From Bilabrum cf. latius (lineage: Eukaryota): a stretch of DNA of 64,000 nucleotides. The stretch covers positions 124,001 through 188,000 of the forward strand of contig OZ237742.1 of NCBI GenBank assembly GCA_965178125.1, written 5' to 3'. Of this stretch, positions 1 through 63,788 are shown one piece after another. The position numbers and the translations under genes were made by a program. Each line of letters opens with the position of its first letter. The stretch's first letter is position 1. A model generated the notes under the pieces. That model was given only the letters and a program-made list of their open reading frames with translations, had not been told where the DNA came from and ran no database searches.

Positions 1-3000
1 GCGGTGTCCCCTTGCCGCAGATTTTCAAAGGGTGCCGCATAGAGGTGGACGGCCGAACGCAACCGCCATTCTCTGAGCTGTAGCTGTTAGTGGGCGAGCG
101 AGGCGGTCGTGTCGTTCTCTACGGGGGTGGGAAAACAGATCTTACCCACTTGATTTGCGGCAGGCTCCCAGAGACGAAGCTTCGAGACTACGCCCGTAGC
201 CTGCGCAAGCTCCCGGTCGTGTCTGCAAGCTGGGTGGTGCAGTCGTGTAGAGAAGGCAGGTTGTTAGACCCGTGGGGTTTTGTCCTGCCTGCCTTGCGGC
301 GCGCAGCCCTGGGAGGCCCCCACTCGTCCTCGTCCTCGTCCGGGCCCGTCGGCAGCGGGGCACCCAGTCCCTTCCTGGCCAGCCTCTGGGGGAACAGCAG
401 CAATGTATCCAAGGGAGGACCCAGCCGTACCACTGCAGCACTGCGGCACGGGCAGACTATCGCTGTTCGTCCTGCCGCGCCCCAGCCCGACGGGCTTCCG
501 GAGGAGCGCCCGCAGTCGTTCACCGGCGGTGCCCCCCCTTCGCACTCGGGCAAGAGCAGCCGACAGGACCCTGACTTTGTCCGGAACTACTTCCGCAACT
601 CCAGGCTGCACTTCATAGGAGAGGCCAAGCAACACATGCAGCACCTCATCGTGCGCACGCTCAGGGCGCTGGGGGGGTAGGCAGGGCAGGGGATCGTGGC
701 CATGCGCACCGTGGGTCAGGGTCAGGGTCAGGGTCAGGGTCAGGGTCAGGGTCAGGGTCAGGGCCAGGGTCAGGGTCAGGGACGCGGGGGCAAGGGCGAG
801 GGCGGACCTGGCAAAGACGGGGGCGCGAGCGCCAGCGGCCAGGCATCTGCTGCATTGGGAGGCGCTGCGCATGGCAGCTCCACCGCTAGGTCCAGCACGA
901 AGCATAGCGGATCCTCGGCAGCGGCTGCCGACCGTAGCCGGTCCCGCAGGCGCGGCGAGCGGTGGATCGCGCACGTGGACATGGACTGTTTTTTTGCCTC
1001 TGTGGCTCTGCTGCGCCGCCCCGAGTTCAAGTCTAGGCCGGTGGCCGTGAGTCACGTGGTGGACGGCTCGGAGTATTCCACCACGCAGGCCAGCGGTGAG
1101 ATCTCTAGCTGCAACTACCTCGCGAGAGCAAACGGCGTGCGCGGAGGCATGTGGCTCAAAGAGGCGCGCCGGCTGTGCCCCGCGCTCGTGGTGCTGCCCT
1201 ACGATTTTGATCTCATCGCTAGGGTGGCAGCCCGGGTCGTGGCCCTGTTCTGCCGCACGGCTCGCGTGGTGGAAGCGGTCTCCGTTGACGAGGCCTACCT
1301 GGACCTGGGCTCTGACCCTGCCCCCGATGAGACGATCCGCAAACTGCGAGCTGCCATCGAGAGGCAGACGGGGTGCACTGCAAGCGCGGGGATCGCGCGC
1401 AATCGACTCCTGGCCAAGCTCGCCACCTCCAGAGGCAAGCCCAACGGCTAGTTCCTGCTGCCTGACGACGACTAGAATGTCCGCGCATTCCTACGGCCGT
1501 TGCCCGCCTCGATCGTCCCTGGCATCGGCTGGGCCACCGCCCGAGAGCTGGTCAAGCGAGGGGTCCACACCGTGGGCGACCTTCAGCGCATGGGAGCCAT
1601 GGGGCTGGCTGCCGCTATGGGGGGCGCGTCTGCAGCGGCTGGAGACCGGGCGGCAGCGTCTGCGGGAGGCAGTGGCGGCCGTCGCGCCGAGCAGCTGGTG
1701 CGTGCGGACGAACTGATCCGGCTGTCTCACGGCATCGATGACAGCACCGTGGAGCTGGTGCGGCCTCGGCAGAGCGTGAGCGCGCAGGTATTTTGGGGCG
1801 TCCGCTTCCTGCAGGACGAGGGCGAGCTAGCCGAGAAGGCCATGCGGGACATCGCCAGGGAGGTGGCGGGGAGGCTGCAGCGGTTCGGGCTGGAGGAGGC
1901 ATTCGCAGAGGGCGCGGTGGCGGAGGCAGATCTAGTGGGAATTCAACGCGGAGAGCGGGGTGCGGGAGCTCGTGCATCAGTCGACGAAAGTAGAAGTAAT
2001 ATGGGAAATACCGTAGATAGTAGTGGCAGGCATGGCACATCAGCGAGCGATGGGACCGGCGATCCGCGGGATGCAGTTGCTGTTTCCAGGAAGGGTGGCG
2101 GAGATGTGTCTGCATCGGCGACTGGCGCGCCTGCTGCTTCTTTGACAGGTATGTCTGGCAGCTTGGCGGCCTCATCCCAGAACAACTTCGAGCCGACCGA
2201 CAACACGGCTGCGCTTCTGCGCGCTGCGGTGGAGCTGCGGCCTGCCGATGACGCATCGCTGAGTGTGACCACCCTGCTGGATCCTTCCAAGCACAGCAAG
2301 GGCGAAGCACGGCCTGTGTAGGCCAGTGAAGACCCATTCGCCCACGTTCAGAACCCGGAAAGGTATTGTCTCGTGGGCAGGAGGGTCGGCGTGGTGGTCA
2401 AGCGGCGGCGCCCGAATGCGAAGCTGCCGTGGAAGAGTCTGGGGCACGGCGAATGCGAGGACTTTTCCAGAACCAAAGTGCTCCCGCAGCACACTGGAAG
2501 CGCGAGAAATATTGGGGAAGCGGCGGTGGAGCTATTACGGGGGCTGGGGTTCTCTCCCTTCGAGCTGCGGGGCCTGAGCGTGAAGGTGGAGGACTTGCGC
2601 CGACCGTGGAGGGAGAGGGAATGGGCCAAGGGGGGCGCACTGGCGAGACATTTCCAGAAAATGGAACGAATCAAGGGACAGGGCGGAGATCTTGGAAATG
2701 TAGGCGAACAAGGACCTGAGCCCGATTCAGAGGGAAGTAAGAGACGCAGTCCATGCATGGAGGTGGAACAGCACGGTGAGCCCACCAGCAGCCTTGCAGG
2801 CGGCGAGGGGCTCTAGCCTGGCAGAAGTGCGGTCGGTCGATGGGAGGGTGGCACGGTTGGGGGCAAGCGCGACCGCCGTAGCAATTTGGAAGATAGCAGC
2901 CCCATGGAGCTTGGGCAACGAGATTCCAAACGGAGGCGAAGAGATGTGGGCGGAAGGAGCGGCACTGCCAGTCCTAGCCCACCACTCCAAGATGGCACAG

Positions 3001-3892
3001 TGCCTCAGAAAGCTGTGTCTCCATCGCACGGAGCAGGCGCGCACCATGACCCCCTGCAGGAGTCCTCTGATGTGGTGGATCTGCTGGGCGATGATTCCGT
3101 GCTGCAGACACAGGACGTGGTCGATGGTGAGCCTCCAGCCGCACCCAAGGGTATAGGGTGTATTTTGCCTCCAAATTCACATGTGCGCGGTGACCAACCA
3201 GTCGAACAAGGTCGGAGACTTACAACTCGCCAGCGTGCATCGAATGCAGCTGGTGGGGGAATAGGCAGACCCAGCCGAAGAGGTATCTCGGGCCGGCACC
3301 GTACCGCCAATGTGACTGGCAGCGCCCCAAAAGGGCTGGGTGTGCAGTTCACGTTCAGTCAGTACGGTGCTGCGGCCATGGAGGCTGCAGCAGGCGTCCG
3401 CTCTGATGCACGCGGAAACGGCGATGCTGGCGCAGCAAGCAAGGGAGCTGATCATGATGCATCGCTCGGGTTGGGCAAGCTGGATCCAAGCATTGGTGTC
3501 GTGGATTTGGTCGATTGCTCGTAGCTGGCGAGCAGCCAAGACGCGACGGCGCGAGGAGATGCTAACCGTCCGGTTGCCCCAGCCCTGAAACCGGAGGACA
3601 TTGCAAATCGTCTGCGCGCCCAGCTGCAGGCCCGCCGCCGCGCCGCTCACGTAAAGTCAGGCTTCTCGCGGGCAGCCTTCCTGGGCAAGGAAGTCCTGGG
3701 TGTCGAGCCTGTGGAGGAGATTGGAAATGGGCAGGAGGGGGCTTCGGGGTATGGAGGCAGTGTGGGGGGTGGAATAGGAAGGGGGGCTCTGGAGAGCGGC
3801 ATGGCCGACCGGGGCAGGGGCATCGTTCGCGCACAGCACGGCCAGGTCGACCGACGGCCAGCTGCTGGGTCTGGACAGCAACTGAGGGGCCA

Positions 3893-3936
<44 letters not shown>

Positions 3937-4679
3937 CCGCTCATGGGTCCGGTAGCATGCCAACCTCCTCAAGCGGGACCTCAGGCTCGCTGCAACTGCC
4001 GGCGCCCCGCCGTTTCGGTGTCTCAGTGTCCCATGGCGTCGAGCTGCTGTCTTACATGCCAGGCATGGATCTGTCGTCGCATCTGCCTCCACTCACACCC
4101 ACCCGAGGCCAAGCATCGGTGTCCTCGGCCTCGCTCGGTGCCTCAGCTGGGATGGTCCAGTGGACCAGAGCACTAGTCTCCAGCCAAGGGCAAGGATCGT
4201 CTCAGGGGCATCGCGGGGAGGATGGGAATGCGGCTTATGACGGGTGCACTTCCACCGGTTGGCGCCTGCTCGTGCAGGACATCCACACCGCGTAGAGCTA
4301 GAGAGGGGAAGAGCCAGTTGCCGAAGGTTCTCATGAATGTGAAGCCAGCACGTTTGAATGGGATTTGGGAGGGGACTGGCGCCAGGTGCAGCGCAAGCTG
4401 CGCGCATGGAGGAGTGCTGCATGGGGCGACCATCGCTGGCCAGTGGGCCCCCCACCAGCTGATGCTAGCGCTGATCTCGTGTCCTTGGGGCTGGAGCTGG
4501 CTAGCTGCAGGCGAGACGCCGATGCGCGGGTCCTGTGCCGCATGCTGCTGCGTTGGGCGCAGGAAGTAGAGACTGTGAGTGCGACTACAACTGCGGGCGA
4601 GTGGGCTGTGCAATTTCGTCAAGCGGCAGAAGGCATCCAGAAGGAGGTGCAGCGCGTGCTGGGCCTGAGCCTAGTGTGA
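1..4679 (+). CDS. REV1: DNA repair protein REV1 (Y-family dCMP transferase), 5' partial; 9 in-frame TAG read as sense
   Basis: One frame (codons from base 3) to TGA 4677-4679. Contains BRCT (IFKGCRIEVDGRTQPP...THLIC...VVSASWVVQS), YFRNSRLHFIG, HVDMDCFFASV, EISSCNYLARANGV, EAVSVDEAYLD, TGCTASAGIARNRLLAKLAT and LGHGECEDFSRT. TAGs at 81, 678, 1449, 1473, 2319, 2814, 3522, 4293, 4299. Confidence 0.95.
714..781 (+). repeat. Coding hexamer microsatellite (GGTCAG)n encoding a Gly-Gln run in REV1
   Basis: About 11 tandem GGTCAG units visible, one of them the variant GGCCAG. Confidence 0.9.
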
Positions 4680-4691
4680 TGGATGACGCAC

Positions 4692-4832
4692 CCTGCTGAG
4701 CTCCACCCTACTGACCCATTTCCCCCTGGTGGGCGTTAGCATATACGTTGCCTCCGCCGCCCGCTGTCAGCACCCTGTCCTGCTGCCAGTTGTGGTCCAA
4801 CTCTGCCCTGCCGTTGGCGACCGCCGCCGTGC
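4692..4832 (-). mobile_element. Short diverged 3' remnant of the RLE-type non-LTR retrotransposon
   Basis: agctccaccctactgacccatttccccctggtgggcgttagcatatacgttgcctccgccgcccgctgtcagcaccctgtcctgctgcc aligns by eye with 15115-15203 and 46055-46143. Confidence 0.8.
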
Positions 4833-5105: not shown

Positions 5106-6743
5106 ATGAAGAGAGCATCGTTTGCTTCAGCCGCAATCATGCGTACCATAACACCGCATTCGTGCAAGTCTATGCCCTTCGGCAAGCAAGCACGCAAAGT
5201 TACCCTGGCTGCTATTGAAACATCTTGTGATGACAGCTGCGCTGCCGTTGTTCGTGGAAAAGCTTGGAGGCGACGAGACATCTTGAAAGCATCTGGCCCA
5301 CGTAGCCATCGACCTCTCGTTACGCTGCCGAGGCTCGAGACGCTGTGGTCCTACAGGGCATCGCAGCATCGGGAGCATGCTCCGTTCGGAGGAATCGTGC
5401 CAGCGGTCGCTGCAGAAATGCACGACAAGAACCTCCCAGTGGCAATATCAAAGCTAAAGGATTACATGGAATCCAATAGAATCGAGCTGGACGGCGTCGC
5501 GTACACCGCTGGGCCTGGCCTGGCCATGTCATTGCGCCGAGGGTACCAGGCCGCGCAGAGGCTCGCCAGCGAGCTCGACTGCCCGCTGCTGCCCGTGCAC
5601 CACCTCGAGGGCCACGTGCTTTCATGCGCACTGACTGCAGAGCAGAGCGATTCAGAGGCCGTGTAGCTGCCATTGGCATGCCTGGTCGCGAGCGGCGGGC
5701 ACACGAGCCTGGTGCTGTCCTCAGGCCCGGGGCAGTTCCAGGTGCTGGGGGAGACTCTGGACGACGCGCTGGGCGAGGCCTGGGACAAGGCCGCCAGGAT
5801 GTGCTATGCGCACGAGCATGCACAGCGGCTGTGGGAAGACAGAAACAAGGACAGGGACAAAGATGGGCACGGAGGCAGAGGCATGGGGGCCGTAGAGGTC
5901 TCCTCCGCCTCGGCTTCGAGGTCGACGAGGCCCGTCCACTACGGCGCCTGCCTCGAGTGGCTGGCCGGGGAGATGCAAGGGGACCCCGACGCCGTGTCTC
6001 TGCCTTTGCCCATGCGCAGCCCGCGGGTGCTGCAGCGGCAGGCGAGCACAGGTCGCTGGGACTTCAGCTTCGCAGGCCTCAAGACGGCGTTCGAACGGGC
6101 AGTCCTTGAGCGCGGCGGGGCTGAAGCGGCCCGCAGCGACGTGCGCCTGGCTGCCGACTTGGCTGCGTCGTTCCAGGCAGCTGCAGTGCGCCATGTGGTG
6201 ACCCAGCTGGATGGGGCTTTCGGCAGCATCGTCGCATAGTCAGAGCGGTGGGGTCGGCTGCAAGCGGCGGCTGCTGGAGGGAGGTCCCAGCCTCCCTCCC
6301 AAAGCAAGGCCGGGCACTTGACCGATTCAGATATGCAGGCGGGACCCGTGCAGCTTCCGGAACTGCTCGTGTGCGGCGGAGGTGCCGCTGCCAACACGGC
6401 GCTGCGTGCGGGCCTGGAGCAGGTTGCGACCAAGTTCGGCATGCGGGTGCTGTATCCGCCCCTGCAGCTGTGCACCGACAACGCCGAGATGATTGGGGCT
6501 GCAGCCGTCGCCCGCTTGGTGGACGGCGTGACACAAGCTGGGAAAGGTCGATCGATTGAGCGAGTTCCTCTCGAACACATAGATGAACGACTCGTGCTAG
6601 ATACAGCCAAGGACTAGCATGATGGTAGCTTGCTGTTTCTTGAGGGCGGAGCAGAGGCCGGGGCGGGGCCGTACACGCCACGATGGCCGCTCGGATAGCC
6701 TATGCCGGCCTACGGGCCCAGTGGCAAGTATCTGGTCGCGTGA
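5106..6743 (+). CDS. OSGEPL1: tRNA N6-threonylcarbamoyltransferase, TsaD/Qri7/OSGEPL1 type, probably mitochondrial; 4 in-frame TAG
   Basis: Motifs [72 protein letters not shown] and LCTDNAEMI. The family C-terminal PRWPL is reached only by reading through TAG 6615. Basic, Ser-rich N-terminal extension. TAGs at 5664, 6237, 6615, 6696; ends at TGA 6741. Confidence 0.93.
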
Positions 6744-7262: not shown

Positions 7263-10200
7263 ATGCGGAGGGCCACTAAATCATGCATGCGTTACCTTCA
7301 TTGGTTTCGCTCTGGCGTTAGCGGAGTATATACGAAATGGAACGCGACTATGTATATGTGTGTGGTTGTTATACTAATATTTGTTGTGTGGACTGCGTGG
7401 GTGCAGCCAGGATACGAACGGGTTGATCGAAGTGCTCCCTCGCAGTTTCAGACCCTCTTGCGCCAGTGCTAGCTTGAGCTATCCAAAGGTGCAACCCTTC
7501 TAGCGGAGTTCAGAAACGAGATTATTAGTCCTACTTAGGAGTCGGGCTCCTTACGCGGCCGGCCTCAATTACCGCTGCTCGTGCATGTCTCATACGAAGC
7601 CCAGGGCGTTGCTTCCTTTGGGGGACTAGGAGCGGCTGTATCAAAAATGCTCGCTGGGCATGAGTCCGGAGCAGTGGTGCTGCTACCATATTTTGGGATG
7701 CTGAGAAACCATAGCTCTGCGGTGCAGCGCGAAAACCTCCGTCACTTATTTTCGCACAGAGTCGCCTGTGGGCTGCCCTCTGTACCGATCACAGAAATGT
7801 CGACCGACGCGGCAACAACACCACCGCTTGTTTCCACTTCGAACGTGATCAACGCATCGTTCGAATTTTGGGTCACCAGAGGTCCCGGCGATTCGCTGGC
7901 TGTGCTGGTGCAGCCGCCGTCTGAGCTAGACTATTTTGCGCAGGTGCGCAGCCGGCAGGACCTGTACCCAGTGCCAGGTCCAGAATCAGGTGCGGTGGCG
8001 CTCCGGGTGTTTGCGCAGGGGGCGGCGATTGCGCTGGCAGCCCTGTGTCCTGCCACCCCTGCGGCTGGAGGAGGTGTTGATGTTGATGTTGGCGGTGGTC
8101 CGTCGTGCCTGGGGGCGGTGTTTCACGGCGCGAACATGGGCCGGGCCTTGATTGCCGCGCGACAGCTGCCCGCAGATCCGAGGCAGGTGCTGTAGGTGTC
8201 ACCAGAGTTGCGCATGCTGTACTTCATCCACGACGGGCTCAGCGAGATCTCTCAGTTCCTCCTGGAGAGCGACCTCCAGGACAGGCTCGGAGCGGGGGCC
8301 GCACGCGCACTAGGCGCTGGTCCGGTGCCACCTGAGGAAGTGTGGTCCCCGCTGCGACTGGCAAAAGAATTACGGAGGGCGCCGCTGCCGGGTCTAGAGG
8401 CCATGGCAGTGGCCAGTACCCTGCACCACCGGACAGGGAACATCCTTGGCCTGACGGCCCTGGCTGCACTGCACGCAGACGCAGTGTCCCCCGTGTCCTC
8501 CTCTCTGGCCAGGGCCCTACTGCCTGGAGGGGAGGTCCTCAGCCTGGGCCACACATCGAGGGCTCTCCTCGCGATGCACAGGGCGGGCCGCCTGTGGGCG
8601 ATTGCACCGGCAGCTCCAGAGCCCGACCCTGCGCTTGGGCTGCCCTCGGTGGACCAGGGCAAGTTGGATCCAGAGGGGGCTGCCCAACGGCTGTGGGCTG
8701 CCAAGGCCAGGGCCAGGACAGAGCTGCTGGGTGAAGGCTTCAGCGGGGAGCTGGCACCTGCCGGCAGTGCGGAGGGTCGGCGGTTCGTGGTTCTGTTCGT
8801 GGGCCGCTTCGAGGCCAACAAGGGGGCTGCGATGGTGGTGCCAGTGGGGCGCGAGGTGTGCGAGCAGGGCGGGCACACGGTGGTGATGTCGACGGGCCCA
8901 CAGGACGAGGTAGGTCGGCGGGCGTGGGAAGATCTGCATGCGTGGCGGGAAGCATCGCCGTAGTGCGTGACGTTGGTGGGAGGTCGGGATCAGGTCCGGG
9001 GCCGTCTGGCGCGGGCTGCAGCTGACGTATGCGTGGTGCCATCGTGGCTGGAGGGATTCAGCACGGTTGCAGTGGAAGCTCTGCAGCATGGCTGCTTCCT
9101 TGTGGCCTCTGACACAGTTGGGCTGCGGGAGCACGTACAGCTGGGAAATGCTGGGGATGTAGTGAGTTGGCCCGCGAGCATGAGTGTGGATGCTCAAGCA
9201 TAGGCAGAAAATGCAGCGTATGTCGCTGGGCCGCGCTCTGGTTCTCTTGATCATAGTGTCGTATCAAGTTCAGGGCAGACACACCATGCCAGCAGTCCAC
9301 TGCAGATGTGGGAGAGCGCTCCGCGGCAGGCGCATGGGCTCCCGCCAGGGTGTGTCGACAGCAGTGCGGCCTCGTTTCGGCTGGACGCCTCCTCTAGGCT
9401 GCCTGCCCATCGCGAGGCGGCCCTGTCCTCGGCGCGGACTCGCGCGGCAGCAATGGCAGCTATGCTAGGCGGGGTGGAAAACTTGAGGCGATGTGGTGTG
9501 AGGGGTGCTAGCCGTGCGGCGGTCCGCTCGCTAGGTCGACTGCCGACCCCTCGCTCCGTTGCTCGGCGCATCGCTGACGCTCTCCATGGCAGATGGGCTC
9601 AGGACTAGGCCCCGGTGCGAGACGGTCGACTCGCGCGCATGCGACTGCTCGGCCACGTATTCGCGCCATTCTTGGCAGCCAGGCGTGTGGCACAGCTGCA
9701 CGTTAGCCTTGCGGCGCCCCATGTTCCAGATGCACCGCGGCAAGGCTTGCTGATTGGTAGGCTGCGGCAGGATCCAGGGGTGTTGCAGACACGGGGGGAT
9801 CGCGGCTTTGAGGTGATTCCACGCACTCGATCGCAAGAAGAAGCTGCTGTCGCGGCAGTTCGCTGGATCGGGATTCGCTCCCACATGCCTGCACGGCAAC
9901 CCAGCTCGACGATGCCATTCTACGGAGCCACGGTGGGGGTTCGGCTGCAAATCAGTGCCTGCAAGTACCTGGAGGCGAGAGGCCTTGAGGAGGGGGCGGG
10001 CCAGCACGTCCGTATCATGGCAGAACTCAGTGCCTTCGGGCACGGTGCCCTGCAAGGCCACGGCATCGAGCTACACCATGGTCCCGACCAGTGCTGCGGT
10101 CATCTATACGTCCTACTGGACCTGTCGCTTGCAATTCCGGACATGATTGAGTTAGTCCTGATCGTGCAGGCGCTGGACAATACAAGCTAGCAAGGTAGCA

Positions 10201-16125: not shown

Positions 16126-16293
16126 TAAAATAACATTACTTTTTTGTAACGCGTATTTTGAAAGCTGAAATCGTAATTGAACGATGATAGACTTCGCGTG
16201 ACGAGGCCCAAATAGATTGCAAGGTACAGAGTATTCGCTGGAGTGAACCCAACAACTTGCATAAGTCATAGGTTTGCTCTGCTCGAAAGATCA

Positions 16294-26448: not shown

Positions 26449-26492
<44 letters not shown>

Positions 26493-50800: not shown

Positions 50801-53800
50801 CTTTAGAGTCGTTGTGCTGCCAGCGCAAACTACCGAGCTAGACGATTCAATACACCATAGCAGTGCATTGCTGCGCACACGCCCAGCAGACTCCCGCACG
50901 TTTTCGCCCCCTGAGAACTCGAGCAGGCTAGACTTACCAATCAAGTAGATCGAGCTGTTCGGCTTAAGTGCTTGGGCCAGCATGGTCTCCTTCTAGTTGG
51001 AGAGGCAGGGATCCATGGACTCGGCCGAAGATTTCTTGGACGCTTGGATCAGCAACGAAGGTCGACGCCTGAACGAATCAGCAGGAGACAATGACGAGAA
51101 GCTGGGCTGGGCACACGACCTGCATGCCCGAGCTGTATTGCAGCACGGGCTCGAACGATCGAGTCGGACACAGAATCCGAATGAGGTCGAGTTTTGTGGG
51201 CCAGCAGACAATAGTTCTGCCAGAACTACTTACTAGGGCTCTACCAGCACTACTTACACGCACGACTAGCGGTGGAAGCATGCATTTGAGGCCACTGACA
51301 TGCTGTGGTCGGTTGAATCAGCACTCCGACTCGAATTAGCGGTCGAGACAGACGTGCGGGTCGTGGGAATCAACTTCATTCATGTACAGCGAGATGTAGC
51401 CAACGCTGGACCGGGCATGTCTGGTGTATCCCCTCTCATTGTGGATGTCTCTTCAGGGGCATCTTCGACGCTCCGGATCATGGGCTGCACAAGCCGTCTG
51501 GCTGCCAGGCTGAACATGTCTGCTGACGGCAGTGGACGAACGGGCATCCAGTAGACGAACGAGTTGGTCGGTGCTGCTCTGCTCCTCTCAAGCAGGCATT
51601 GCACAATCACAAGCAATGGTAGACGACATTGCAGCACGGCTGAGGCCCTGAAAGACGACGGGGCATCATACCTCGATGTTGTGATGCAAAACGTGCAGGT
51701 GCTGCCGGCATGTGTAGCAGCTTCGGCAAGTGCACTCAAGGATGGCGCAATGAGTTCCTTCGCGATTCTACCGTCAAGCAGTTCTATTCCTTCGCGTGGT
51801 TCTCCCTTGCTTCGAGCCATTGGGAATGACACTGCATCTGAGGACGCCAGGTGGGGTCTGCTCGTGGCAATAAGCAAGAGGCCAGCCCCTGCTGTGGCCG
51901 TATTTGATGGGGCATCTCGAGTAAGACTAGAGCTTTCGACTGTCTTGGATGCGTCATCATTCGTAGATCCCATACAAGTTTTGGCCCTGCGAAGTGTTTC
52001 ACGTGTGGAAGTCCTTGAAGTCGTTGCTGTCAGCGCTCGTACGGGGCTGGCTGTCCAATAGAGCCCTATGCATGCCAAAATCAAGTAGGAGATCCACAAG
52101 GCTACTCTATCTGCTTGCACCAGGGTGTATGGTGACGGGTGCAATTAGAGCTTCGCTGGCATCATGTTGGGCGGCACACCTGTGCCGCATGCCTTGGCTT
52201 TGGACTGTGCTTAGAACTACTCTCTAGCCGGGCGAAGCCCCCCTTTGCAGCTAAGTGCACGCCATGACAGCACGCCCCAGCTATCCGGCTCACTGCTTGG
52301 ATTGCACAATCCTGCGGGGTCGTTTGAGGCAGGCCTTGCCACGGTGGATGTGTCTAAGGTAATACTAGTGGATTCTACCGGAGTTCAGCGCAGAGTGAGC
52401 CCCGACCAGTCAAGTATAGCTGAATCAGTGGGTGCAGCTGTGGCCGTGTCTGGTGCTCGAAGCATCGGCGTGAGGCGCGTACTTGTAGTTCGTGCGCCGG
52501 CTGCTTTGTGGTGTGCAGCTCGACGACGTATTTTCAGCGACGCGAACAGTGCAAGCAGCATGCTATATGATTCTAGTGCTGTATTGAGTAGAGGAGTGTG
52601 CGGTGACGAAAAGGGTAGCATAGTCAGAGCATATGCTACTGACTCAGTCTCTATGGTTTCAATAGTGGATGTGGACGCTGACGCACGCAAAGCCATTGGA
52701 CGGCAACCATTCCTCGACGATGTGCTCTCGCTCGCTACTCGGTTGACTTTCAGTGGAAGTATCACTGGGCGAGCTTTGCTGCCTCCTCGAGTCTTGGCAT
52801 TTTACGAAGACGACGCTTGGGTCCGAGCAGCAAGTCAAGACGCTTTGCATGACGGGAGTATGTTCGCAGCCGATGCATCGGCAATCTGGTAGCCAATAAT
52901 GACAGCAGCAAGCCGAGCTACGCGCGACCTGGCTCCACTTCGGCCGAAACTTGAGGTTTCTCGAGCGGCCCCCTCCTCGGTTACCTTGACTGATGCAATT
53001 GTGGTCGGGTCAGGCACACAGAATCACGCGAGTGGGTGGACACAAGCTTTGCAGCTTGCTGCAACAGACTTAGCTGCATCCATAGTCCTCCTTCATAGCC
53101 CCACGGGGGAAGACAAATAGGCTTCTTTTCTGGCCGAAGCAGCTCTGAATTTAGGCTTGTCAGGTGACGGGAGCTAGATTGAAACATGCGAGCAGGACGC
53201 AATTTTGTCATCCACTGGCGCGTTTGACTACTTGCACGAGGACATCGCTGCAATGTCCAGTGAATAGCCTGCAGAGCATACTGTTGAAACTATCATGTAG
53301 TGTGTGACTTCCGCATTCGGATTTCGACCGGAGGCAATTCGTGCAGCGGCAATCTCTCTGCTCCAGACTGCTAGGTCACGGCGAACCGCAATGCACGGTT
53401 CTGGGGGCGTTGCTTCAATTCGCATGTCGGGGCGAGGGTTGGGGGCTTCCATATCAGGACTGCAGGCTGCGCGAATTGCACCGGCTGTTTGGAATGGAGG
53501 TATTCTTGCATTGTCATCAGCTGTTGGACACGGTGATGTTGGCCAGGCCAGTTCCACGGTTAGCCTCAACATTCAATCCAGTTCGATTCAAGCGGCTACG
53601 TCCGTCCTTGGGTCGGGTGGGTTCTTGTCAGTGCAATCATGGGCTCTATCTACTCATCAGGTCGAGGTCAAGCTACAGTCATCCAGCGTGTATGGGTGCG
53701 TTGCTCCAGCTGGTGCCGGTGGCTGCATTGCTGTGGCTCGCTCAAGCAGTTACCCCTGGGAGAAAGACAGCTCAACGATATCACGGCCGGCTATCGATCT

Positions 53801-56800
53801 GGAGGTTTTGGAGTCTAGTCTTTCACACGCTGTATCGGGAAGTGTTGGTGGCGCTATTGCAGTAGTAGGCGTGGGCGGCACCGTACCAACAGTTCGTCTG
53901 GTGGCTTCGACAATTAATGCGTCTCACGCCGAAGCGGGAGGCGGGGCGATATGTTTACTTTAGCTAGCGACAGCTAGCTAGCTTGCTGCAGTGAATTAGG
54001 CAGCAGCAGCTCTGCACCTTCCTATGGGCCCGCTTGCGCGTGCGGACCGCATTGCTCAACCTGATACACTAGTCACCCTCAGCTCTGCAGCCGAGGCTCT
54101 CGGGCCGGACATGGGCTTTGCTTTGCAAGCCATTGATTCTGCTACAGGACTGTTGCATGCCGGATCACTTGTGTTGAACAGTAGCCAGAGAGCCGTTTTT
54201 TAGCCGAACGGGTGGGGGGCACTCCCTGGACTGATCAGTGGGGCTCTCACGCGACCCGTGCCGCAATCTAGTATAGCGATCCAAGGCAGCTCAATTGTTC
54301 ATAGTTTCGTCGGGCGGCCTCCGTGCGTCAGAAGCTTCCGAGCAGGCGCCCAAGCAAGTTGCGGGGCCAATAGTCTTGGTTGCATTCCATGGAGTATGTC
54401 AGCCCTAAGTAATGTGCCCCCACTGCTGAATTCTGCGTAGGGTAGCTTACTACCATGGTAGAGGTCTATGCCACTGTGTAGCGAGCATGCGCGCTCTATT
54501 ATGGTACAGAATGACCTAGTGGCATCACCTTCAGCTCGCCATGCCAAGACGCTTGGCGGCCGTTTGGGAGGAGCTATTCTTCTTGCTTCTGCGGAGAATG
54601 CTTTCCTCAATATGGAAAGCTATCAAAAGCAGTTTGGCAGCAATAGATCAGTGCTACACTCATCAGTGGAGCATGCTGGAGTGGGCCTGAGGGATGGTGA
54701 CTATGAAGCTCGGCCGCCCTTACCTGCCAGAGGTGGTGCACTGGCGGCGGTGCAACTCACTGACCCACAGGTATCGCTGCAGTGGATGGAGCATGGCATG
54801 CTGCTTGGCTCAAAATGGGCAGATCAAGGTGGTTACGACCGGCTTCAGTAGGCGGTTCATGCTGCGCAGCTGCACTCTGCTCCGACAAGATCAAGCATGT
54901 TCAGCGGGTCCACACACAGCACGCTTGTTCGTGAAGAACTCTGGCAACATTCGACGAGTGTTGGAGCAAGTCAGGACAGTGATGAGCAGTCAGAACAGGT
55001 CGCAATACGAAACAACAGTTCGGGCGTACAGCGAGACGAAGCGTGCTTTGCATTCCTTAACGGGTCTTGGTGGACCGATGCATCGACGGAAACGTCCAGT
55101 GGCTTACTTGGGTTCGAATTTGCTCGCTAGGCCGCGACTGCAGCTTCTCAGTGTACAGTCCGAGACGTTGCTACGGGCTGTCCAGCAGATGATGCAACTG
55201 TCCACAATGCTTCAGAGAGTATACCGATGCGAATTAGACGGCAGGCCGTTTATGTCTAGGTGGCCTGCCGCTTTGCAAGGCAATTGGCGCTAGGTGCTTC
55301 AGGCACCAGAAATGAGACCATTAAGATTCGTTCTAGCACTTGGGTTGCGGATTGGTTGGAATTCATTGGGTCATGGGAGCGACTTGCAGCTATGCCTGAG
55401 TCTGAAATCAACCCAACGAAGCCGTCACTGACTGTAATCGTTCGGGATGGGACTTCTATTCGTAGGTCTGTTAGTGCGGCCGCACCTGGCACTAAGTCTT
55501 CTTCCACCTCAGGGGGCGGCTCACTTTACATTGAAGGAGCCAAAAGCTACATCCTTGGTGGGGCCTCCCTTGCACATGGGTCCACAGGAGGATCGGGAGG
55601 GGTCATTCTGGCTAGATAGAGCTCACTACTTCTGGCAGGAGCTAGCATCTCCACAGGTTTGGCATGGGATGGTGTAGGTGGCTGCGTTGCCCATCTCGAC
55701 GCGCAATCGACAGAATCTCAGGTACGAGACGGTAGTACCATTTCGGGTTGCGTTGCGATGCGTGCTGACGGAGGCATCATTCAGCATATTGCTGGGGACG
55801 GGCAGTTTGGAGGGGGGTGTCTCGCAACAGTCCGATCAAGCATAAAGGTTGGACCTCATGCCAGGCTAGATGGCTGCAGGGCCAATGCTATGGGTGGTGC
55901 TTGGATGCACACTGGGGAGCAGTCTCGCGCTGAGCTAATCGGTCCAGTTGCATTGCACGACGGTATCGTACTCGGAGATGGGTACAATCTGCAAGCAATG
56001 AAGCAAGGGCATCTGGAGATCACGACACACCGCGCGGACGAGCAGTCTACCCCTCAGGAACCGCTCGCTCCCCTAGAGCCGCGGCACATCGTCGCAGGTG
56101 GGGGATTGCTTGGTATATCAAGTTCTTTTAGTTTGAACTCTTCGCTATGCAGACCTGTTGGCACGTGCTCGTTCTCGCTCGGGAAAATACATGGGATGCG
56201 ATCGGCCAGAGGGGGTTGCCTGATGGCGGATAGCCTGGCCCAGCTTGACGTCGCATATCTGGGTCTGTCGGATTGTTCTATCTGGAGCACGCTTCCTACT
56301 GATGTTTAGCCAAAGCCAGCGGGATAGGGTGGAGCAGTGTCAGTTTCACGGATGCGCGTATCAGATGCCTTGTACTCGGCAGCGACCATCCGATCTGTTT
56401 TAGTGGAGGATGGCTCTGCCTTGGGAGGCGCTGCCTTTTCTCTCGATTTGCGGTCATCTGGTGAGGCTACTCTAGACAAAGCAGTGATCAAAGGTGTTGC
56501 TAAAGGAGTTGGAAAGGCTGTGTATTTCCCCGATCCATCTGGCGTGCCTCATCAAGATCTGAATTCATACGGCTGCGATGACCATGGTACGGCATTGAGT
56601 GGCTCAGCCTTGCTATGGTATAGGAGATCCTGCTTGGGGGCAGCCGCTGTCAAAGGTATCTGTCCGGGATGCCTCATCGACGACGCATTCCAGCCTCAAC
56701 TATTAGGCCTCGATCGTGTGAAATCGCCTACAGTAAGATTTTGGCAGATGGCTAGCCATTCGGATTCGAGATAGCTTTCATCCCGACATTCGAATGCCTC

Positions 56801-59800
56801 AGCGATGAGCCAAAAGGGTAGTGCATGGCGCACCTTGCGCCCTTTTGCATCCGGCATGCGCCGCTTGGAAACGTAGTACGTGCTTCCGTCCTCCAGCAGT
56901 GCGAGTGCGGTACGGCAGGCTGAGACGATATACTTACCGGGCATCGAATCGCAGAAATCGCTTCTAGTCGCAAGTCTGCTCGACGCGTTTTCTATGCCAC
57001 TTGATGGCGACCTGGCGCAGCAGTACGGGGTGCTTTGCAACGTGTAGGCAACGCAAGAGCTTACTCATGGCACCAGACAAGCCGTCCTTCCAGTCAACTC
57101 AACCCGCACATATACTCCAAATACTGCAACGGGAACCGTTGACGTGCGGCCGTATGGTCTGCTGGCAAGCATGGGGGCGGTGGTCCGTCTATAGGTGCGT
57201 TGCTCTAGCAGTGTGTTGGGAATCGAATCGGACCCCGTGGAGATTCTCACTCGAGTTGCTGGCATCAAGGCGGGGCTATCATTTGCCGTAGCCAACACCT
57301 CAGGTTTAACCACTTATCTGACAGTCTTGTCAGCAGATGCATCAACTGTCGGGATTCTGCAGCGGGCTCAAGAGGACCGGGATGCGCTTGCATTGAGTTG
57401 TCGTACATCAGAGTCAGAGAGTACCAGCTATTCTTACAAGCCAGAGATTTAGGTCAAACTGTTATCTGATGCCGGCGGGCCTTCGGGGCAATACAACGAG
57501 GGCGTTCGCTTGGCGAACATTTTATGCTCTCTCCAGTCCGTAAATCCTCGCCCAGTTCAAAGTGCCTTAGCAGCCGAGCTGGCAAGCCCATCATTGCAGA
57601 CAGGTGGAGCCTCGGTTCTGCTTGGGTCGACTTGCAGTAGAACAAATGACAATGGCACTGCCAGGTTCAAGGGCCTAGGTGCGCAGCGCACGGAAATGCA
57701 TACCGGGGCCGGTCCAGGGCTTGTTACGACTCTTCCTTTTGGGTGGGAGACCGACATTGGCGTCTAGTGCGACTGGGGGAATCCGTCAGAGCCATTCGGG
57801 GAAGTGAACACGTTGAAACTACAGTCACCACTCATGGTTTGGGCTGTGAGGGCGTGGAAGCACAACCCAATCGGCAACGGCGTCATTCAAGAGCTAGTAG
57901 AGCCGAGCGATGCTCTGTTGTCTTAGCTGTAGCCATCCACTTATGGTACAACTCGTGCCCTGGCAGCAGGACGTGGTCGTCCTTCAGATTGGTTGCACCC
58001 TTGGCGGTTGCCAGTTGCTGCTGACGCAACCGCGTGGGCACCGCCGCACCCTATTGCTCCAACGCTGACCTCTCTGCCCGGAAAAAGTCTTCCAGCAACA
58101 TCGCACCTCCCATTTGCCTCGCCTATTCTTTTACATGAAGGCCAGGTGCTTGAGCCCTCGTGGCCATCTGCTCTCCCGAGTATGCCGTCTATCAGCGAAG
58201 GTGTGCAGCCTCTGTCGCCGGCACCGGAGATACTTGTAGAAGTGCGAGGCGCATCGGCGGCAACAATGTCACAGCGTGGATCTAGGGTTGCGTGCTCTCT
58301 TCAAATCGAAGCATGGGCGGCTTGGAAGAGTGGAAACGCTGCAAGGCTAGTTGATGCTGGATAGATCCAAGTGCCGCAGCTTGTGGGCAATGTAACGTGG
58401 GTGGGGATAGCCGATTGGGAGCCGGTTTCTCTGAAAGCAAAGACTGATACGGGCGGTACGATTGCCTACGGAGGATTCTTACAATTTGAAAAGTAGACTG
58501 AAATGTTGTCTTCGGAGCTGAGTGGCGGGGTCTGGTCGTCAGCCGTACAGGGCAACCCAATCCCAGATGCAACATCGGCTACGAGTCAAGTACTTTCTTT
58601 GCGTAATGCAACTAGAAGCTTGCCTTAGCAAGGAGCTATGGCCCGAGTTCGGTTTCCTTATGTCGGCATCGCAGGCGTTTCCTCGGGTGCCTCAGTGGTG
58701 CTTGGTGCCCGGTGCACTTGGGGCGGCATGCACGACGTCAGCCGCGCACCGGCTGCATCGCGACCTCTTCTGCGGAGCGATGTCTTGCCCCTCCAAGTTA
58801 CTTTGGACCGCAAGAGAATGCGATCGTAGCTCGTGGCTGGGTTTGATGTGTCTCAGGGCCACGCTGTGAATGCCTCGCTGGATCCTGAGTTGGTCGAGTA
58901 TCCGGTGGTCAGTGTTGCACACTGGTCCGACATTCCTGCTGACGACTTAGTTGCTGCAGGGCAGCAGATTTCTGGCCATATTGTTCCCCAAAAACAAGTA
59001 TTAGAGCTTGTTCCAGCCCCTGCAGCTCAGGTGAGCATTTCACCTCCTTTCGATGACCTTTTGCGCGGAGAACCAGACCAGGTTTACCGGGGATCGAAAA
59101 TCACCTCCAACCAGGCTGAACGAATCGAGACCTATCTAGGAGTCGTAGGGCTACCGCAGGTGGGGTCATGGCCATCAAGGCTGCAATTTCCGGCAGCCTT
59201 GGCACACCGCTAGAATCCGGTGGATCGATCGCCAATCAGCCCGTCTTAGATCCAGCTGGTGAATGCCTCTTTTAGTCGTGGTCTTCATGCTTCAAATGGT
59301 AACGAAGGGGCAGCTGGCTGGTATACAGTCTTTAAGGGCGTCGGTGTCAGTACAATACGTCGAGACGATGCGTCAAGCGCGTTTCACAGGGGTGCTGCTA
59401 CCTACCTAAAGATTGAAGCTCACTGGATAAACGGTGAGGTATTTACTCAGGTGATGCCTGTAGCTCAAGTATCAGATCTGCTCGCTGTGGTTCCTCCTTC
59501 GACGGTGAGATGGAGCGTTTCTTTTCCTGAAGAGGCTCTAAGGAGCCAGCAGTCTTGGGTCAACGTTGCCTCTGAGCTCCTCCATACAGAAAATGCAGTA
59601 ACGCATGCGGGCAACTCGTCGGCAGTTCAAATTGAAACCTTACCAAGTGCAGACAGGGGATATGCACTCAGCGGATAGACGTCAGACCTCATTATTCGTG
59701 ATGTGGATCTCTAGTCGCTCCGTCCAGCTCCCGAGCTTGTGGTAGCTGCTGTATTTCCTTGCAACGTGACGGATCGCTGGCCTGGACTCATTGGCCCTGA

Positions 59801-62800
59801 AAGCAAAGGCTACACCCCATCATCTGTGTCATGCCTTTCTGAAGCGCCGCTCACCGCTACATCTAGACAGGAAATAGCCACGCGACTGCTTCTTCGGCAC
59901 CGGCAGATAAGCGTGCTGGGGCAGTGGTCATCACTGGGTCACACAACCAGGCGAGACTGCCGGACTCCGAGAATGCGCTGCAGCTTGAGCCAGATTTCTA
60001 CAGTGCTATCTGACAATCGGGCGGTGTCTTCTGCAGGTAAGCTCGTTGGATGGACCAACACATACACTACCCCAGTCAACCTGACTCGCGTAGCAGCTGC
60101 CACCCTATCGGTAGGCTCGCTTTCATCTGAGTGTCATAGCCACTGGGGTCTTCCAGCCACCGGGGTAGTGCACTCCCTTGGCGTTGCTGCAGATTTCGGC
60201 ACTGCCACTCAAGTTGATGCCAGGTGTGACTGGCTGACGACAGGGACCATTCGGTCCCAAGATTCGAATGTGTTTGGGCCAAGCATTCCTGAAAATGTTA
60301 ACGGAGCTGTGTTGGAGATTGCTACGAGCAACCTGAACGTCGATTGGAATCCAGTCCTGCCTGATGATCTTAGTGATTCAATGCTGCTCACTTGCCCGTC
60401 ATCCGATCCCGTGGCCGTCGAACAAGCTCTGAAGATCAACAATACCCTGGGGCAGGCTGACCGTCCGCTTCGAGTCTTGTATGGAGACACGCATCCAGTA
60501 GCAGTTGCCGTGTTCAAGAAAGGTGCTGCTGGATCCCGAATCCCGATCTTACCAGCGGAAGCGTCTGCAGCGCGATGCACCCTAACCGTCGATGGAGTAT
60601 CTGATAGTGGTGACTCGGCAAGGCTAAGGGGTGGCGAAGCGGCAATTTCTGCCCAGCCCATGGTTAGGAATGGAGGCATCGGGGGTATGTCTGTAGCCAC
60701 CATGTGCCTGCAACTGCTTGCGGATGGTGGGACTAACGCCCGGCTGTTTGTCCAGTGCAAGCTGGCAGATCGCACAGTGACTAGTCCTCCTCTACATCTA
60801 CAGGTACCATTTTTACGCATCCGGGAGTTTCAGCCCCTCGCATCAGTCGGGAAGCCCAGTACGCCCCAAGTTTTAACTCCTTTGCGTCCTGCTGGAGCGA
60901 TCGGGTTTGAAGACGAGCTAGGAGTCGAAATGCCGGTGCCATCCCAGTGCTTTGTGATTCTTCTGGAGGATAGCGTGCAAAGCTGGACGAGACCTCCACT
61001 TCACGACGGCACTGAGGACCATTCCACTGTATAGGCATCACTCCTCGTGCCTCCAGCAAATGGGTACTTCCCAACGGTGGACCTTCAGCAGGCAGATCCA
61101 AGCTTTGTAAGACGGCAAGAGCGGTTCTAGCAGCTTGGCATGGAAACTGATGAACGGTCAATTGGTGGAAATAGAAGCCTACTGCATTTTGCTAACTAGG
61201 TCACATAGACACAAGTTGCAGGTATCATTTCTCGAGGTGGAGTAGTGCCTATTGACCGAGTCGTACTGCAAGCGGACTACGGCGTCTCAGTCAGCTTGAG
61301 GGTAGAATGCATGCGATCACAAGGCGGGGAAGAGGTGGTGTTCACGGCTCCAGTGCACATGCGAGGAGATGTCGGTCTCTGGTTTTAGTCGCCCCCGGAA
61401 TCCGTCCAATCACAAGAGCCTTTCTACATGTCGGTCGAGGTAGCAACGGTGTGGGATGGAATGTATGCCGTAGATCCTCCGGTGCGAGCTACTGATGAAG
61501 TGCATGTCAGATGCATTGCAAACCTGTTGTCAAACGACACGTCCGTGATGTTGCTCAATGCCGAAGCAGATTCAAGGGCGGGATTGGTGGAGTGGCCCGC
61601 CATTGCGGCATTGGGACGTGCTGGGCAGGAGTACGAAATCGACGTAACATGCTTTAGGGGAGAATCCATCCGGCTGCCTGGCACACCCCTGCGCTCGACC
61701 ATTCGGATGACTCCTTGCGGCCCCGGAAAGGAGCCTGCAGGGGTCGGCGGGGTCAGGTGTGATGATTGTCCGACTGGAACATATTCGCTTGGATGGGATG
61801 GAAGCGCTTGCAAGTCTTGTCCGGACGAGTTGGGGTTTGCCTCCTGCGCCGGGGGTGAGATATCATTGCCCCCAATGGGCTGGTTTCTCGTGTAGAATGA
61901 GGAAAGCGCACCTATGGTGAATTCAACCACTGGAGAGAGAGAAATTTCCGCTTCCGCCGAATTCCACGAGTGTCTTTCGCCGGCGGCGTGCGTGATAGAT
62001 TAGCAGAACAGAGTGTTTTCGTGTGCCAAAGGGCATACTGGACCGCTGTGTGCCGTGTGTGACTAGGCTCTGAACTATGGCGCCAGCTCAACCCCTGGAG
62101 AGTGCGTTCCGTGCTACTCCGACGGTGCCAACTGGACTCTCGTCGGCCTTGGAGTGGTTGCTCTTGTGCTTGGTCTGCTGTATGTTGCAGTGCTCCAGCA
62201 GCCCGACAAGAATAATAGGCTCGGTATCTTGTTCCGCATTGGAATGAATTATGTCACGGCTCTTGGAACTCTTGGTCTCTACAAGGCGAAGGGCACCGAG
62301 ACCTTTCGTTTGTTGTTCGGGTGGACCGAGACAGCAGGCACAAGCCTTTTTGCAGGGAGTCCGCTTCAGTGCGCGGCGCGCCCATCTTTCGCAACTGTGT
62401 TTCTTACAGCTGTGGCATTCCCTTTCGTGATCAGTGCGGTCGCCATTCTCCTGAACCTACTTGTGTTTGCTCTCGAGTCATGCACGGGGACCTTGATCCG
62501 GCGAAGGGGGTTCGAGGGGTTGATGAATCTTTGTCGCTGCTGCAAAGGTAGGGCGAACGGCAAGAGTCAACCTTAGATAGCTTCTGCAACTGGAAGTGGC
62601 AACTCGATGATGATATCGTCTAATCCAATATTCTCCGAAGAAGGCGGGCGCGCAGGCCGGCTCAGGTTCCAGCAAAAGCTTGATACCTCTACGCCCTCCC
62701 CTTTGATAGCCCGAGGTCAAAGAGAAGCCCCGAACCTTGAGAGCGGCGGCTCAACAAGCCAGGATACAGTTGGTTCGTGTAATGCTTACAATCAGGGCGT

Positions 62801-63788
62801 TAATCGAAGCGCCTGTTCCCGAATGGTCGACTACTTTGTGCACTTGCGGTTCCTTGGCACTGCGATCTTGGTGGTATGCCTGTCCTACGCAGTCGTGTCC
62901 TCGATGGCTCTCTCGGTGTTCGATTGCCTGCCGGATGCTATCGGTGGTAAGGTGTACCTTAAGAAAGACCTCCGCGTTGAATGCAACACCGGCGGGCATA
63001 TCGCGTTGCAGGTTGGGGCTGGCCTGGTCCTGGTGATTCTCGGGCTTGGGCTTCCGATAGGCGTTGCGTACATGCTCAGAGCTGCGCCCACGGAGCGCCT
63101 AGAGAATGATGAGCTCTTTTTTGAGTAGTATGGTTTCCTGTATAAGGGCTATGACATTGCGCGCGGATTGCATTGGTGGGAAGCCATCGGGATGGTTCGT
63201 AAAGTGGCGATAGTGGCGATTGGCTCGCTCATCAAGGAGCCTTACAACGCCGTGCTGTTCTCCATCTCTGTCTCGGTGTTGGCGCTAGTGCTGCACGCAC
63301 AGTGGCAACCGTTCAGCGAGAGCGTCTTCAACAGGGTTGAGACAGTTTGCCTGGTCGCCATCGTGATCACCCAGATCCTATCGGTGTTATACTTGCGAAG
63401 CGAAGACAATGCCCTCCAAGAGGAGAGAGAGCTAGATGCACGCGCTGACAGTGAGCCGGCTAGAGTTGTCGTAGGAGGGCCTCGTATGCCTGATGGCGCT
63501 TTGAATACCACGTCTGACAGCATTTCGAGCAGAATCCAAGCCTTGCGCGACGGCACTGGATCTACAGATGCTGCTGTGACTGCCATACTGTGCCTTGTCA
63601 ACTTCGTGGCCATGATTACCCTACTGGCAGCAATGTGGGCGGTCAAAACGACCGACAAGTAGCGTGAGCAGCTGAGGAGCAGCGGCATGAAGCAACATCA
63701 ACTGGGACGTACGTAGTAGCTTGGGCAACAGCCCAAACTTGCACCGAGCCTGCACACACTGCGGCGCACATCCCCACCACAGGGTTAA
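47809..63788 (+). CDS. Giant (~5100 aa) cell-surface protein: signal peptide, RCC1/BLIP-II-like repeats, GGA(I/L) beta-helix-like region, Cys-rich module, multi-TM C-terminus; about 60 in-frame TAG
   Basis: Predicted exons 47809-47907, 47993-48169, 48327-48443, 48613(or 48634)-48879, 48977-49090 and 49179-63788. The last exon is one frame for 14.6 kb, broken only by TAG, and ends at TAA 63786. Motifs HSCAVSRSGRLNCWG, GGAIAV, GGAIC, CDDCPTGTYS, CAKGHTGPLCAVC, YLKKDLRVEC and YGFLYKGY...WWE. Confidence 0.85.
47908..49178 (+). other. Five phase-0 GT-AG introns: 47908-47992, 48170-48326, 48444-48612(or 48633), 48880-48976, 49091-49178
   Basis: Donors GTGAGA, GTGCGT, GTAAGA, GTATGG and GTGAGA; acceptors CTCACAG, CTGCAG, CACCAG (or ACGCAG), GCGCAG and TTCGCAG. 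Splicing restores continuous RCC1-like repeats. Confidence 0.7.

Follow-up and report, generated by a model that had tools for sequence, protein, structure and literature searches.

In-frame TAG codons, most likely read as glutamine, in a GC-rich contig of Bilabrum cf. latius

Which of the three standard stop codons still end a protein is the question raised by contig OZ237742.1 of the assembly GCA_965178125.1, which carries the label Bilabrum cf. latius. A stretch of 64,000 nucleotides of it (positions 124,001 to 188,000, forward strand) was analysed; this whole stretch is called the window in the following, and all positions are counted from its first letter. A first-pass annotation, made from the letters of the window, had taken TAG for a sense codon and TAA and TGA for stops, and this reading is borne out by the sequence, by homology, by independent contigs and by spliced contigs. 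The best explanation, to which we assign a probability of roughly 85%, is that the window is nuclear DNA of a protist with a GC-rich and compact genome, in which UAG is a sense codon, most likely for glutamine, while UGA as the usual terminator and UAA act as stops.

Reading frames, TAG codons and terminators

The GC content varies between 54 and 67% across the window, and the length of its open reading frames (ORFs) depends strongly on how TAG is read. With the standard code there are 22 ATG-started ORFs of at least 250 amino acids (aa), the longest of which has 951 aa, whereas 44 such ORFs with a maximum of 4,863 aa are obtained with TAG as sense codon. The same is seen when ORFs of at least 300 aa are counted from stop to stop: the standard code gives 24 (longest 967 aa), TAG as sense 42 (longest 4,897 aa) and TAA as sense 26 (longest 1,015 aa), whereas TGA as sense gives 72 with an unchanged maximum of 967 aa, which means more short ORFs only. 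Once TAG is taken as sense, the two strands of the window together carry 15 non-overlapping ORFs, which are spaced by 24 to 1,284 bp, with one larger gap of 4.4 kb that contains a decayed repeat. These 15 ORFs are listed here with their TAG codons and terminators:

3-4679, plus strand: gene for a REV1-like Y-family DNA polymerase, its 5' end being open at the edge of the window; nine TAG (aa 27, 226, 483, 491, 773, 938, 1174, 1431 and 1433); TGA end
5106-6743, plus strand: bacterial-type TsaD/Qri7 (t6A synthase) gene; four TAG (aa 187, 378, 504 and 531); TGA end
7263-10325, plus strand: GT4-type glycosyltransferase, paralogue a, with an N-terminal anchor, Glyco_trans_1_4 at 1.4e-14; seven TAG; TGA end
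10714-13767, minus strand: GT4-type glycosyltransferase, paralogue b, with Pfam matches; nine TAG; TGA end
15052-16269, minus strand: repeated-element ORF of 405 aa, no Pfam family; four TAG; TGA end
16294-21384, plus strand: multi-domain glycosyltransferase (anchor, GT64, middle region, GT2); seven TAG (aa 9, 100, 501, 541, 658, 1163 and 1454); TGA end
21617-23482, plus strand: secreted-looking protein, PAN_4 at 2.7e-05, under the curated cut-off; three TAG; TGA end
23654-26749, minus strand: low-complexity membrane protein, no family; one TAG; TAA end
27556-30945, plus strand: ankyrin-repeat protein, Ank_2 at 1.2e-12; six TAG, those at aa 82 and 98 within repeats; TGA end
31106-32938, minus strand: ORF without family; four TAG; TGA end
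33551-35164, minus strand: ORF of 537 aa without family; no TAG; TGA end
35305-38220, plus strand: SGT1/ecdysoneless-family gene, Pfam SGT1 at 1.1e-26; eight TAG; TGA end
38284-39246, minus strand: ORF without family; one TAG; TGA end
39306-44768, minus strand: ubiquitin-specific protease (USP) gene, Pfam UCH at 1.6e-24; ten TAG; TGA end
49197-63788, plus strand: giant gene of 4,863 aa, no Pfam family; 63 TAG; TAA end

In total, the 18,143 codons of these ORFs contain 136 in-frame TAG and neither a TAA nor a TGA. In the +1 and +2 frames, these ORFs contain 183 and 148 TAG, 53 and 47 TAA, and 275 and 343 TGA, respectively, and it follows from this three-frame count that TAG is about as frequent in frame as out of frame, whereas TAA and TGA are excluded. 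As the absence of internal TAA and TGA is built into the definition of the ORFs, weight is placed on their length, on the contrast to the other frames, and on the homology that flanks the TAG codons. TAG occurs in 14 of the 15 ORFs, the exception being 33551-35164 on the minus strand, and the terminator is TGA in 13 cases and TAA in two (23654-26749 on the minus and 49197-63788 on the plus strand). The earlier count of 14 genes (12 with TGA, two with TAA) and more than 120 TAG thus holds up, the additional ORF being the repeated-element ORF at 15052-16269 on the minus strand.

Pfam families were found in nine of the 15 ORFs, namely in the REV1, TsaD, two GT4, GT64 plus GT2, PAN (weak), ankyrin, SGT1/ECD and USP genes, and homologues with a solved structure back the REV1, TsaD, GT64 and USP identities. 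The REV1 gene matches IMS (1.9e-40), BRCT_2 and IMS_C as well as human REV1 (3gqc, 3.7e-47), the TsaD gene matches Pfam TsaD (2.1e-58) and a TsaD structure in the PDB (1.7e-37), and the GT64/GT2 gene matches Glyco_transf_64 (5.8e-61) and Glycos_transf_2 (7.4e-23). In the REV1, TsaD, GT64/GT2, USP and other genes, Pfam domains and homologues of solved structure lie on both sides of the TAG codons. Essential protein parts had been claimed to lie beyond TAGs, and they are indeed found there: the TAG at aa 1750 of the USP gene precedes the tail WRRWDD..AYILAYVL, the PRWPL motif of TsaD is preceded by the TAG at aa 504 and followed by that at aa 531, and in the GT64/GT2 gene the TAG at aa 100 separates the membrane anchor (about aa 43-62) from the catalytic domain (aa 120-362).

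A codon-usage frame test was applied to 60 codons on either side of each TAG, with training on the other genes. Frame 0 was the best fit after TAG in 114 of 127 windows and before TAG in 118 of 127, which compares with 92% of 295 windows placed anywhere within genes. After the 15 TGA or TAA stops, frame 0 was best only once and tied once, so that the frame signal was gone after 13 of 15. Translation therefore continues past TAG and ends at TGA or TAA. A simple frame test based on GC at third codon positions was uninformative (19 of 127). Taken together, these data support a code in which TAG is sense whereas TAA and TGA stop translation, and they show that UGA and at least one UAA terminate.

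A related question is whether UAG has been reassigned alone or together with UAA. A code in which both codons specify glutamine (table 6), with TAA as sense codon that is merely very rare at high GC, would have to explain why no in-frame TAA is observed, while about 54 are expected from the CAA:CAG ratio of 212:534 if TAA were synonymous with TAG, and while the other two frames do contain 53 and 47. The ORF at 23654-26749 ends at a TAA, another in-frame TAA comes four codons later, and the frame signal disappears after the first (frame score -10.2). Freeing TAA on top of TAG would also extend the longest ORF only slightly, from 4,897 to 4,968 aa. What speaks for a sense TAA, and against our view, is the TAA of the giant gene, which is unconfirmed: if it is read through, the frame stays open for the remaining 70 codons up to the end of the window, with a frame score of +3.3. 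On balance, we consider the table 6 code very improbable here.

It is also conceivable that TAG has a dual role, being sense within genes and a context-dependent stop for some of them, of the sort known from karyorelict ciliates and Condylostoma. Because the ORFs were delimited with TAG as sense, genes ending at TAG would be hidden, which is a weakness of our approach, and some TAG codons do lie close to gene ends, as the last TAG of the SGT1 gene is found two codons before TGA and two TAG of the giant gene are found 22-23 codons before TAA. Against this stand the observations that all 15 ORFs reach a TGA or TAA, with loss of the frame signal in 13, that the conserved C-terminal parts of REV1 and USP come after the last TAG, and that TGA and TAA never occur in frame, whereas ambiguous codes reuse all stops. 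A dual role of TAG hence appears unlikely, if less so than a sense TAA.

Several features of the individual loci are worth recording. The two GT4 paralogues are arranged tail to tail, with DNA blocks of 91-98% identity between diverged ends (7881-8251 with 13140-12770, and 8457-9116 with 12561-11902), which has the appearance of an inverted duplication combined with gene conversion; two TAG codons (aa 311 and 567 of paralogue a) are common to paralogue b and lie inside the near-identical blocks. The repeated-element ORF has a second copy in the window:

46037-47059, minus strand: second copy of the repeated element, frame-shifted, 92% identical over 1,032 nt to the copy in 15052-16269

The repeated element spans at least 1 kb (15097-16120 and 46037-47059), and a fragment of 125-136 nt with 81-83% identity is found at 4690-4825. 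In the public run X1, the contig depth of the copy at 46037-47059 was 50-100 times that of its neighbours, and the element family is therefore high-copy in the genome. The TsaD protein has an N-terminal extension of about 33 residues ahead of the conserved core. The TAG-free ORF at 33551-35164 on the minus strand is overlapped by a plus strand ORF at 33909-35438 of 509 aa, with eight TAG and no family. The giant gene encodes a cysteine-rich part and a multi-span C-terminus; GC over this gene (48000-64000) falls to 0.545-0.55 from 0.59-0.67, and its TAG density is 63 per 4,863 codons, compared to 73 per 13,280 elsewhere. Searches with the SGT1 protein, and with residues 1-1400 and shorter lengths of the giant protein, gave no match at E <= 0.001 among 8,000 scored candidates, a null result of the word index that is uninformative on homologues, because the candidate lists were probably taken up by low-complexity or chance words.

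Independent contigs, spliced joints and protein fragments of relatives

Whether the TAG codons are present in the genome and in mature mRNA could be addressed with public sequence runs, as the stretch 35305-44768 was found in eight of them, from four studies and under four organism labels. Such letter-for-letter identity across four labels may mean that the organism is a shared associate, a symbiont, a food organism or a contaminant, or that it has been differently named. Four of the runs were compared as contigs over 35305-55000, namely X1 and, from three other studies, X5, X6 and X8. The listed contig pieces, which are up to 4.6 kb long, have 0 differences from the window. This interval contains 48 TAG, of which 39 are covered in X1, 36 in X5, 17 in X6 and five in X8; six TAG of the SGT1 gene lie within X6 contigs. 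An AGC/CAG-type repeat in the SGT1 gene (36409-36448) attracted very deep unrelated contig matches with spurious joints in all four runs.

Two introns of the same type were recognized in this interval:

45062-45158, minus strand: intron of 97 nt, GTGAG..CAG, located in the USP gene's 5' region
49088-49175, plus strand: intron of 88 nt, GTGAG..CAG, just 5' of the giant-gene ATG

The DNA-like runs X1 and X5 are continuous through both introns. The joint of 45061 to 45159 is found in contigs of X6 and X8 and not in those of X1 or X5, and the joint of 49087 to 49176 is found in one X6 contig. Because two GTGAG..CAG introns are removed at these joints, we regard spliced RNA as the source of the contigs in question. 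In all other respects they run collinear with the genome, keep all ten TAG of the USP gene and differ from it in at most one position in 3.9 kb, and it is likely that the TAGs are unedited in mRNA. Two points weigh against this view. The RNA origin of X6 and X8 is deduced only from the two intron-less joints, as none of the listed runs with this stretch is recorded as RNA, the types of the runs were guessed and X6 was even guessed to be "probably DNA", and one difference that could not be located is present in the X6 contig that covers six of the USP TAG codons. As the introns lie in 5' regions, the true starts of the USP and giant genes may sit in upstream exons; the USP frame is open to 45155. 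The earlier description of the organism as intron-poor thus applies to the coding regions analysed here, with the qualification that two short introns are found in 5' regions.

The TAGs could also be untranslated, which is to say assembly errors, pseudogene mutations, sites of mRNA editing or parts of introns. No support was found for this possibility, other than that the type of the RNA-like runs is only guessed. Window-identical contigs come from four studies, decay would not yield 136 TAG against not a single TAA or TGA, the frame is kept after 114 of 127 TAG, the spliced contigs are collinear with the genome over all ten USP TAG, and proteins of relatives break at matching positions, as described below. 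For practical purposes, assembly error, pseudogenes and hidden introns are excluded, and we regard untranslated TAGs as the least probable of the explanations considered, with a negligible chance of being correct.

The evidence from relatives comes from public protein collections. A search with TsaD found one protein of 396 aa, P0001 from a public assembly, that is 87% identical, whereas the other matches listed share 29-39% identity, and all organism-named ones among these are bacterial; several of the best named matches are cyanobacterial (31-37% identity). For REV1, four fragments are relevant:

P0123: 90% identity, query 524-772
P0190: 95% identity, query from 791
P0197: 82% identity, query 327-454
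P0126: 58% identity, query 593-888

P0123 stops right before TAG 773 of the window and P0190 right before TAG 938, and P0001, P0123 and P0190 begin at GTG codons of the window. Such ends and GTG starts are exactly what would be expected of a bacterial-style gene caller at an in-frame stop. P0197 stops right before a CAG of the window (Gln 455), which is one transition away from TAG. We infer from these positions that the stops at the break points of the relatives are TAG, which indicates that the code is also used by one or more close relatives (about 90% identity) and probably by one that is more distant (58%). A metagenome scan with the GT64/GT2 protein found no relative, its matches being two distant GT2 loci with 24% identity, and a viral-contig scan with GT4 paralogue a likewise gave no relative.

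The residue encoded by TAG

As there is no tRNA gene within the window, conserved alignment columns were used to call the residue, on which the first-pass annotation had not decided. Two of them are particularly clear. TAG 483 of REV1 aligns with the Q of the KPxGQ motif in human REV1 and in E. coli DinB, and among 146 homologues from an exhaustive search this column contains 95 Q, followed by 8 S, 7 L, 6 I, 6 V, 5 M and 5 A. TAG 1454 of the GT64/GT2 gene corresponds to the conserved Q of the GT2 motif Q-[ST]-[YF], and Q is found opposite to it in all three distinct solved enzymes shown, which are heparosan synthase B, chondroitin synthase and GalT1.

In a Codetta-like test, segments were scored against Pfam and NCBIfam models with TAG read as different residues. 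The GT2 model gave 51.6 bits with Q, the best of all 20 residues, while the other 19 scored 45.8-48.8, and the best DinB model gave 179.7 with Q and 178.3 with L as the next residue. The TsaD profile scores were nearly level (Q 167.7, K 167.5, E 167.3), the Ank_2 profile gave D 53.4, E 53.0, N 52.5 and Q 52.3, and the BRCT_2, Glyco_trans_1_4, SGT1 and UCH profiles barely separated the residues. When six columns were summed (REV1-27, REV1-483, TsaD-187, GT2 and two ankyrin columns), Q led R by 7.8 bits, K by 8.9, E by 9.7, S by 14.5 and L by 16.0. Over eight segments and five residues, the scores relative to Q were -7.0 for K, -10.9 for E, -13.9 for S and -20.2 for L. The flat-prior posterior for Q from the six columns is 0.99, which overstates the certainty, because two columns carry it.

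The alternative is that TAG is a sense codon for another residue, such as Arg, Lys, Glu, Ser, the residue in Scotinosphaera, or Leu, that of the rhizarian exLh, and a number of observations do speak for it and thereby against glutamine. The glutamine call uses about six alignable columns, and two of them are decisive. Apart from the best-scoring model, the bacterial DinB subfamily models favour L, Y, W or R at the REV1 columns. Column 27 of REV1 contains 56 R and 50 K, but only 6 Q among 129. Column 187 of TsaD contains 32 E and 20 Q among 119, with E in the 87% identical relative and in E. coli, and TAG 378 of TsaD is opposite Ser in the same relative, so that both TsaD sites are non-Gln there. 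The ankyrin columns slightly favour Asp or Glu, which Ank_2 ranks above Q. Finally, in the GT4 paralogue and the repeat copies, TAG is found opposite GAG, GAA, TCG and AAG, and never opposite CAG or CAA.

Variable sites and a frame-shifted copy of the repeat are the source of these pairings with other residues. Both TsaD sites that were compared with the 87% relative (Glu and Ser there) fall in variable stretches, and the comparison of the GT4 paralogues and of the repeat copies is uninformative, as it yields either shared TAGs or V, N, A, E, L, G, S and K at poorly conserved or decaying sites. The summed bits relative to Q are negative for R, K, E, S and L alike, and the REV1 KPxGQ and GT2 Q-[ST]-[YF] columns fit Q only. 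We therefore hold another residue to be improbable, on a par with a dual role of TAG, and judge from the conserved columns that TAG very probably specifies glutamine. If so, TAG would account for 136 of 882 Gln codons (15%).

Lineage, mechanism and comparison with known codes

A tRNA whose anticodon is CUA reads UAG but not UAA, and in the case of glutamine such a tRNA is, according to the part of the source available to us, separated from tRNA-Gln(CUG) by a single mutation (Panek et al. 2017, PMC5304391). By analogy, a tRNA-Gln(CUA) derived from tRNA-Gln(CUG) by this single mutation could decode UAG and not UAA in the present organism, and an altered eRF1 would no longer release at UAG. The 64-kb window contains no tRNA gene and no eRF1 gene, which counts against the reading insofar as its mechanism is inferred.

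The identity of the organism was approached through REV1, for which 20 clusters (the ten best-scoring full-length ones and the ten nearest in the tree) were considered. Three of these carry organism names, namely Heterosigma akashiwo, Nannochloropsis/Microchloropsis and Phaeothamnion confervicola, and all three are ochrophyte stramenopiles; the REV1 of Phaeothamnion confervicola has the highest identity to the query (48%). In a FastTree phylogeny of 147 REV1 rows, the query sits on a long branch and in no supported clade, and an Rfam scan of the window found no rRNA and no other family. From the named homologues, we lean towards a stramenopile affinity. In the literature, of which few subscription journals were covered, no nuclear UAG reassignment was found in a stramenopile and, Scotinosphaera apart, none in a GC-rich alga. 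An independent origin of the code, as suggested by the first-pass annotation, is hence plausible in that the named REV1 homologues are ochrophytes, for which no lineage with this code is known, whereas the placement in the tree is unsupported. Tentatively, and with odds that we put somewhat below even, this might be the first case of a nuclear stop codon being reassigned in a stramenopile (probably an alga related to the ochrophytes, or else a heterotroph closely related to such an alga), in which UAG alone would have become glutamine independently and would be fixed in a clade (represented by the relatives of about 90% and about 58% identity) with a GC-rich genome and UGA as the main terminator. 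If this is true, such a GC-rich and UGA-terminating case tests whether UAG can separate from UAA without AT pressure.

Nuclear codes that split UAG from UAA are few. As far as the accessible parts of the reports cover them, they comprise one fornicate, one rhizarian, one green algal genus and a handful of ciliates, and each independent case informs why UAG and UAA are normally coupled and how eRF1 drops UAG alone. What distinguishes the present case is a GC-rich compact genome that stops mainly at UGA and whose relatives are already in public data. Because four studies, with four organism labels between them, have runs that contain the sequence, material of the organism probably exists. It also follows that annotation of this assembly and of its relatives with the standard code would be badly fragmented, as the public proteins of the relatives already are.

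The list of UAG-only precedents in the first-pass annotation (Iotanema spirale, a rhizarian and some phyllopharyngean ciliates) was incomplete, as Scotinosphaera (PMC8271138) and Protocruzia tuzeti (PMC11687900) were missing. In the portions of the sources at hand, the fornicate Iotanema spirale is described as reading UAG as Gln and stopping at UAA and UGA (PMC5304391), Protocruzia tuzeti, a ciliate, together with two lineages of phyllopharyngean ciliates, as using only UAG for Gln (PMC11687900), and the green alga Scotinosphaera as reading UAG as Ser and stopping at TAA and TGA (PMC8271138). The lineages named there for UAG-only codes, a fornicate, a rhizarian, ciliates and Scotinosphaera, include no stramenopile (PMC5304391, PMC11687900, PMC8271138).

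The closest match are the table 15 taxa Iotanema spirale, Protocruzia tuzeti and the phyllopharyngeans, in which likewise UAG alone is reassigned, glutamine is the inferred residue, and UAA is found outside of coding frames. They differ in that UAA is their dominant stop, in the parts of the reports considered here (PMC5304391, PMC11687900), whereas TGA ends 13 of 15 ORFs in the window and the genome has about 60% GC. The nearest named REV1 homologues are those of ochrophyte algae, unlike the ciliate and metamonad hosts of table 15. The bacterial-type TsaD/Qri7 in the window is presumably more in keeping with an organism that has translating organelles than with an anaerobic fornicate.

Scotinosphaera shares with the window a UAG-only code in a possibly algal nuclear genome with both TAA and TGA as stops. 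Its serine is not matched, as no conserved Ser column was found at a TAG, with Ser scoring 14.5 bits below Gln and occurring solely at a variable TsaD position of a relative and in one repeat copy. The rhizarian exLh and some phyllopharyngean ciliates, with UAG for Leu, likewise reassign UAG only; TAG was not found at conserved leucine positions in the window, where the TAG sites lie in polar contexts and Leu scores 16 to 20 bits below Gln (16.0 over six columns and 20.2 over eight segments).

The reassignment of both UAA and UAG to glutamine (table 6) is used by many ciliates, hexamitid diplomonads, some Ulvophyceae and Amoeboaphelidium. These codes likewise turn stops into glutamine, presumably by mutated tRNA-Gln, but TAA is sense in none of the 18,143 codons of the window. 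Condylostoma, Blastocrithidia and Amoebophrya ex Karlodinium have ambiguous codes in which all three stops are reused, so that UGA and UAA also occur in frame, whereas in the window only TAG does. The oligohymenophorean ciliate PL0344 reads UAG as Glu and UAA as Lys, according to the part of the report available (PMC10553269). In PL0344, too, UAG and UAA differ in meaning, but TAA is not sense in the window and Glu scores 9.7 bits below Gln. Compared with all of these systems, the code described here is probably of the NCBI table 15 type, which is a known kind of code, here probably in a new lineage and against an uncommon background of high GC and termination at UGA.

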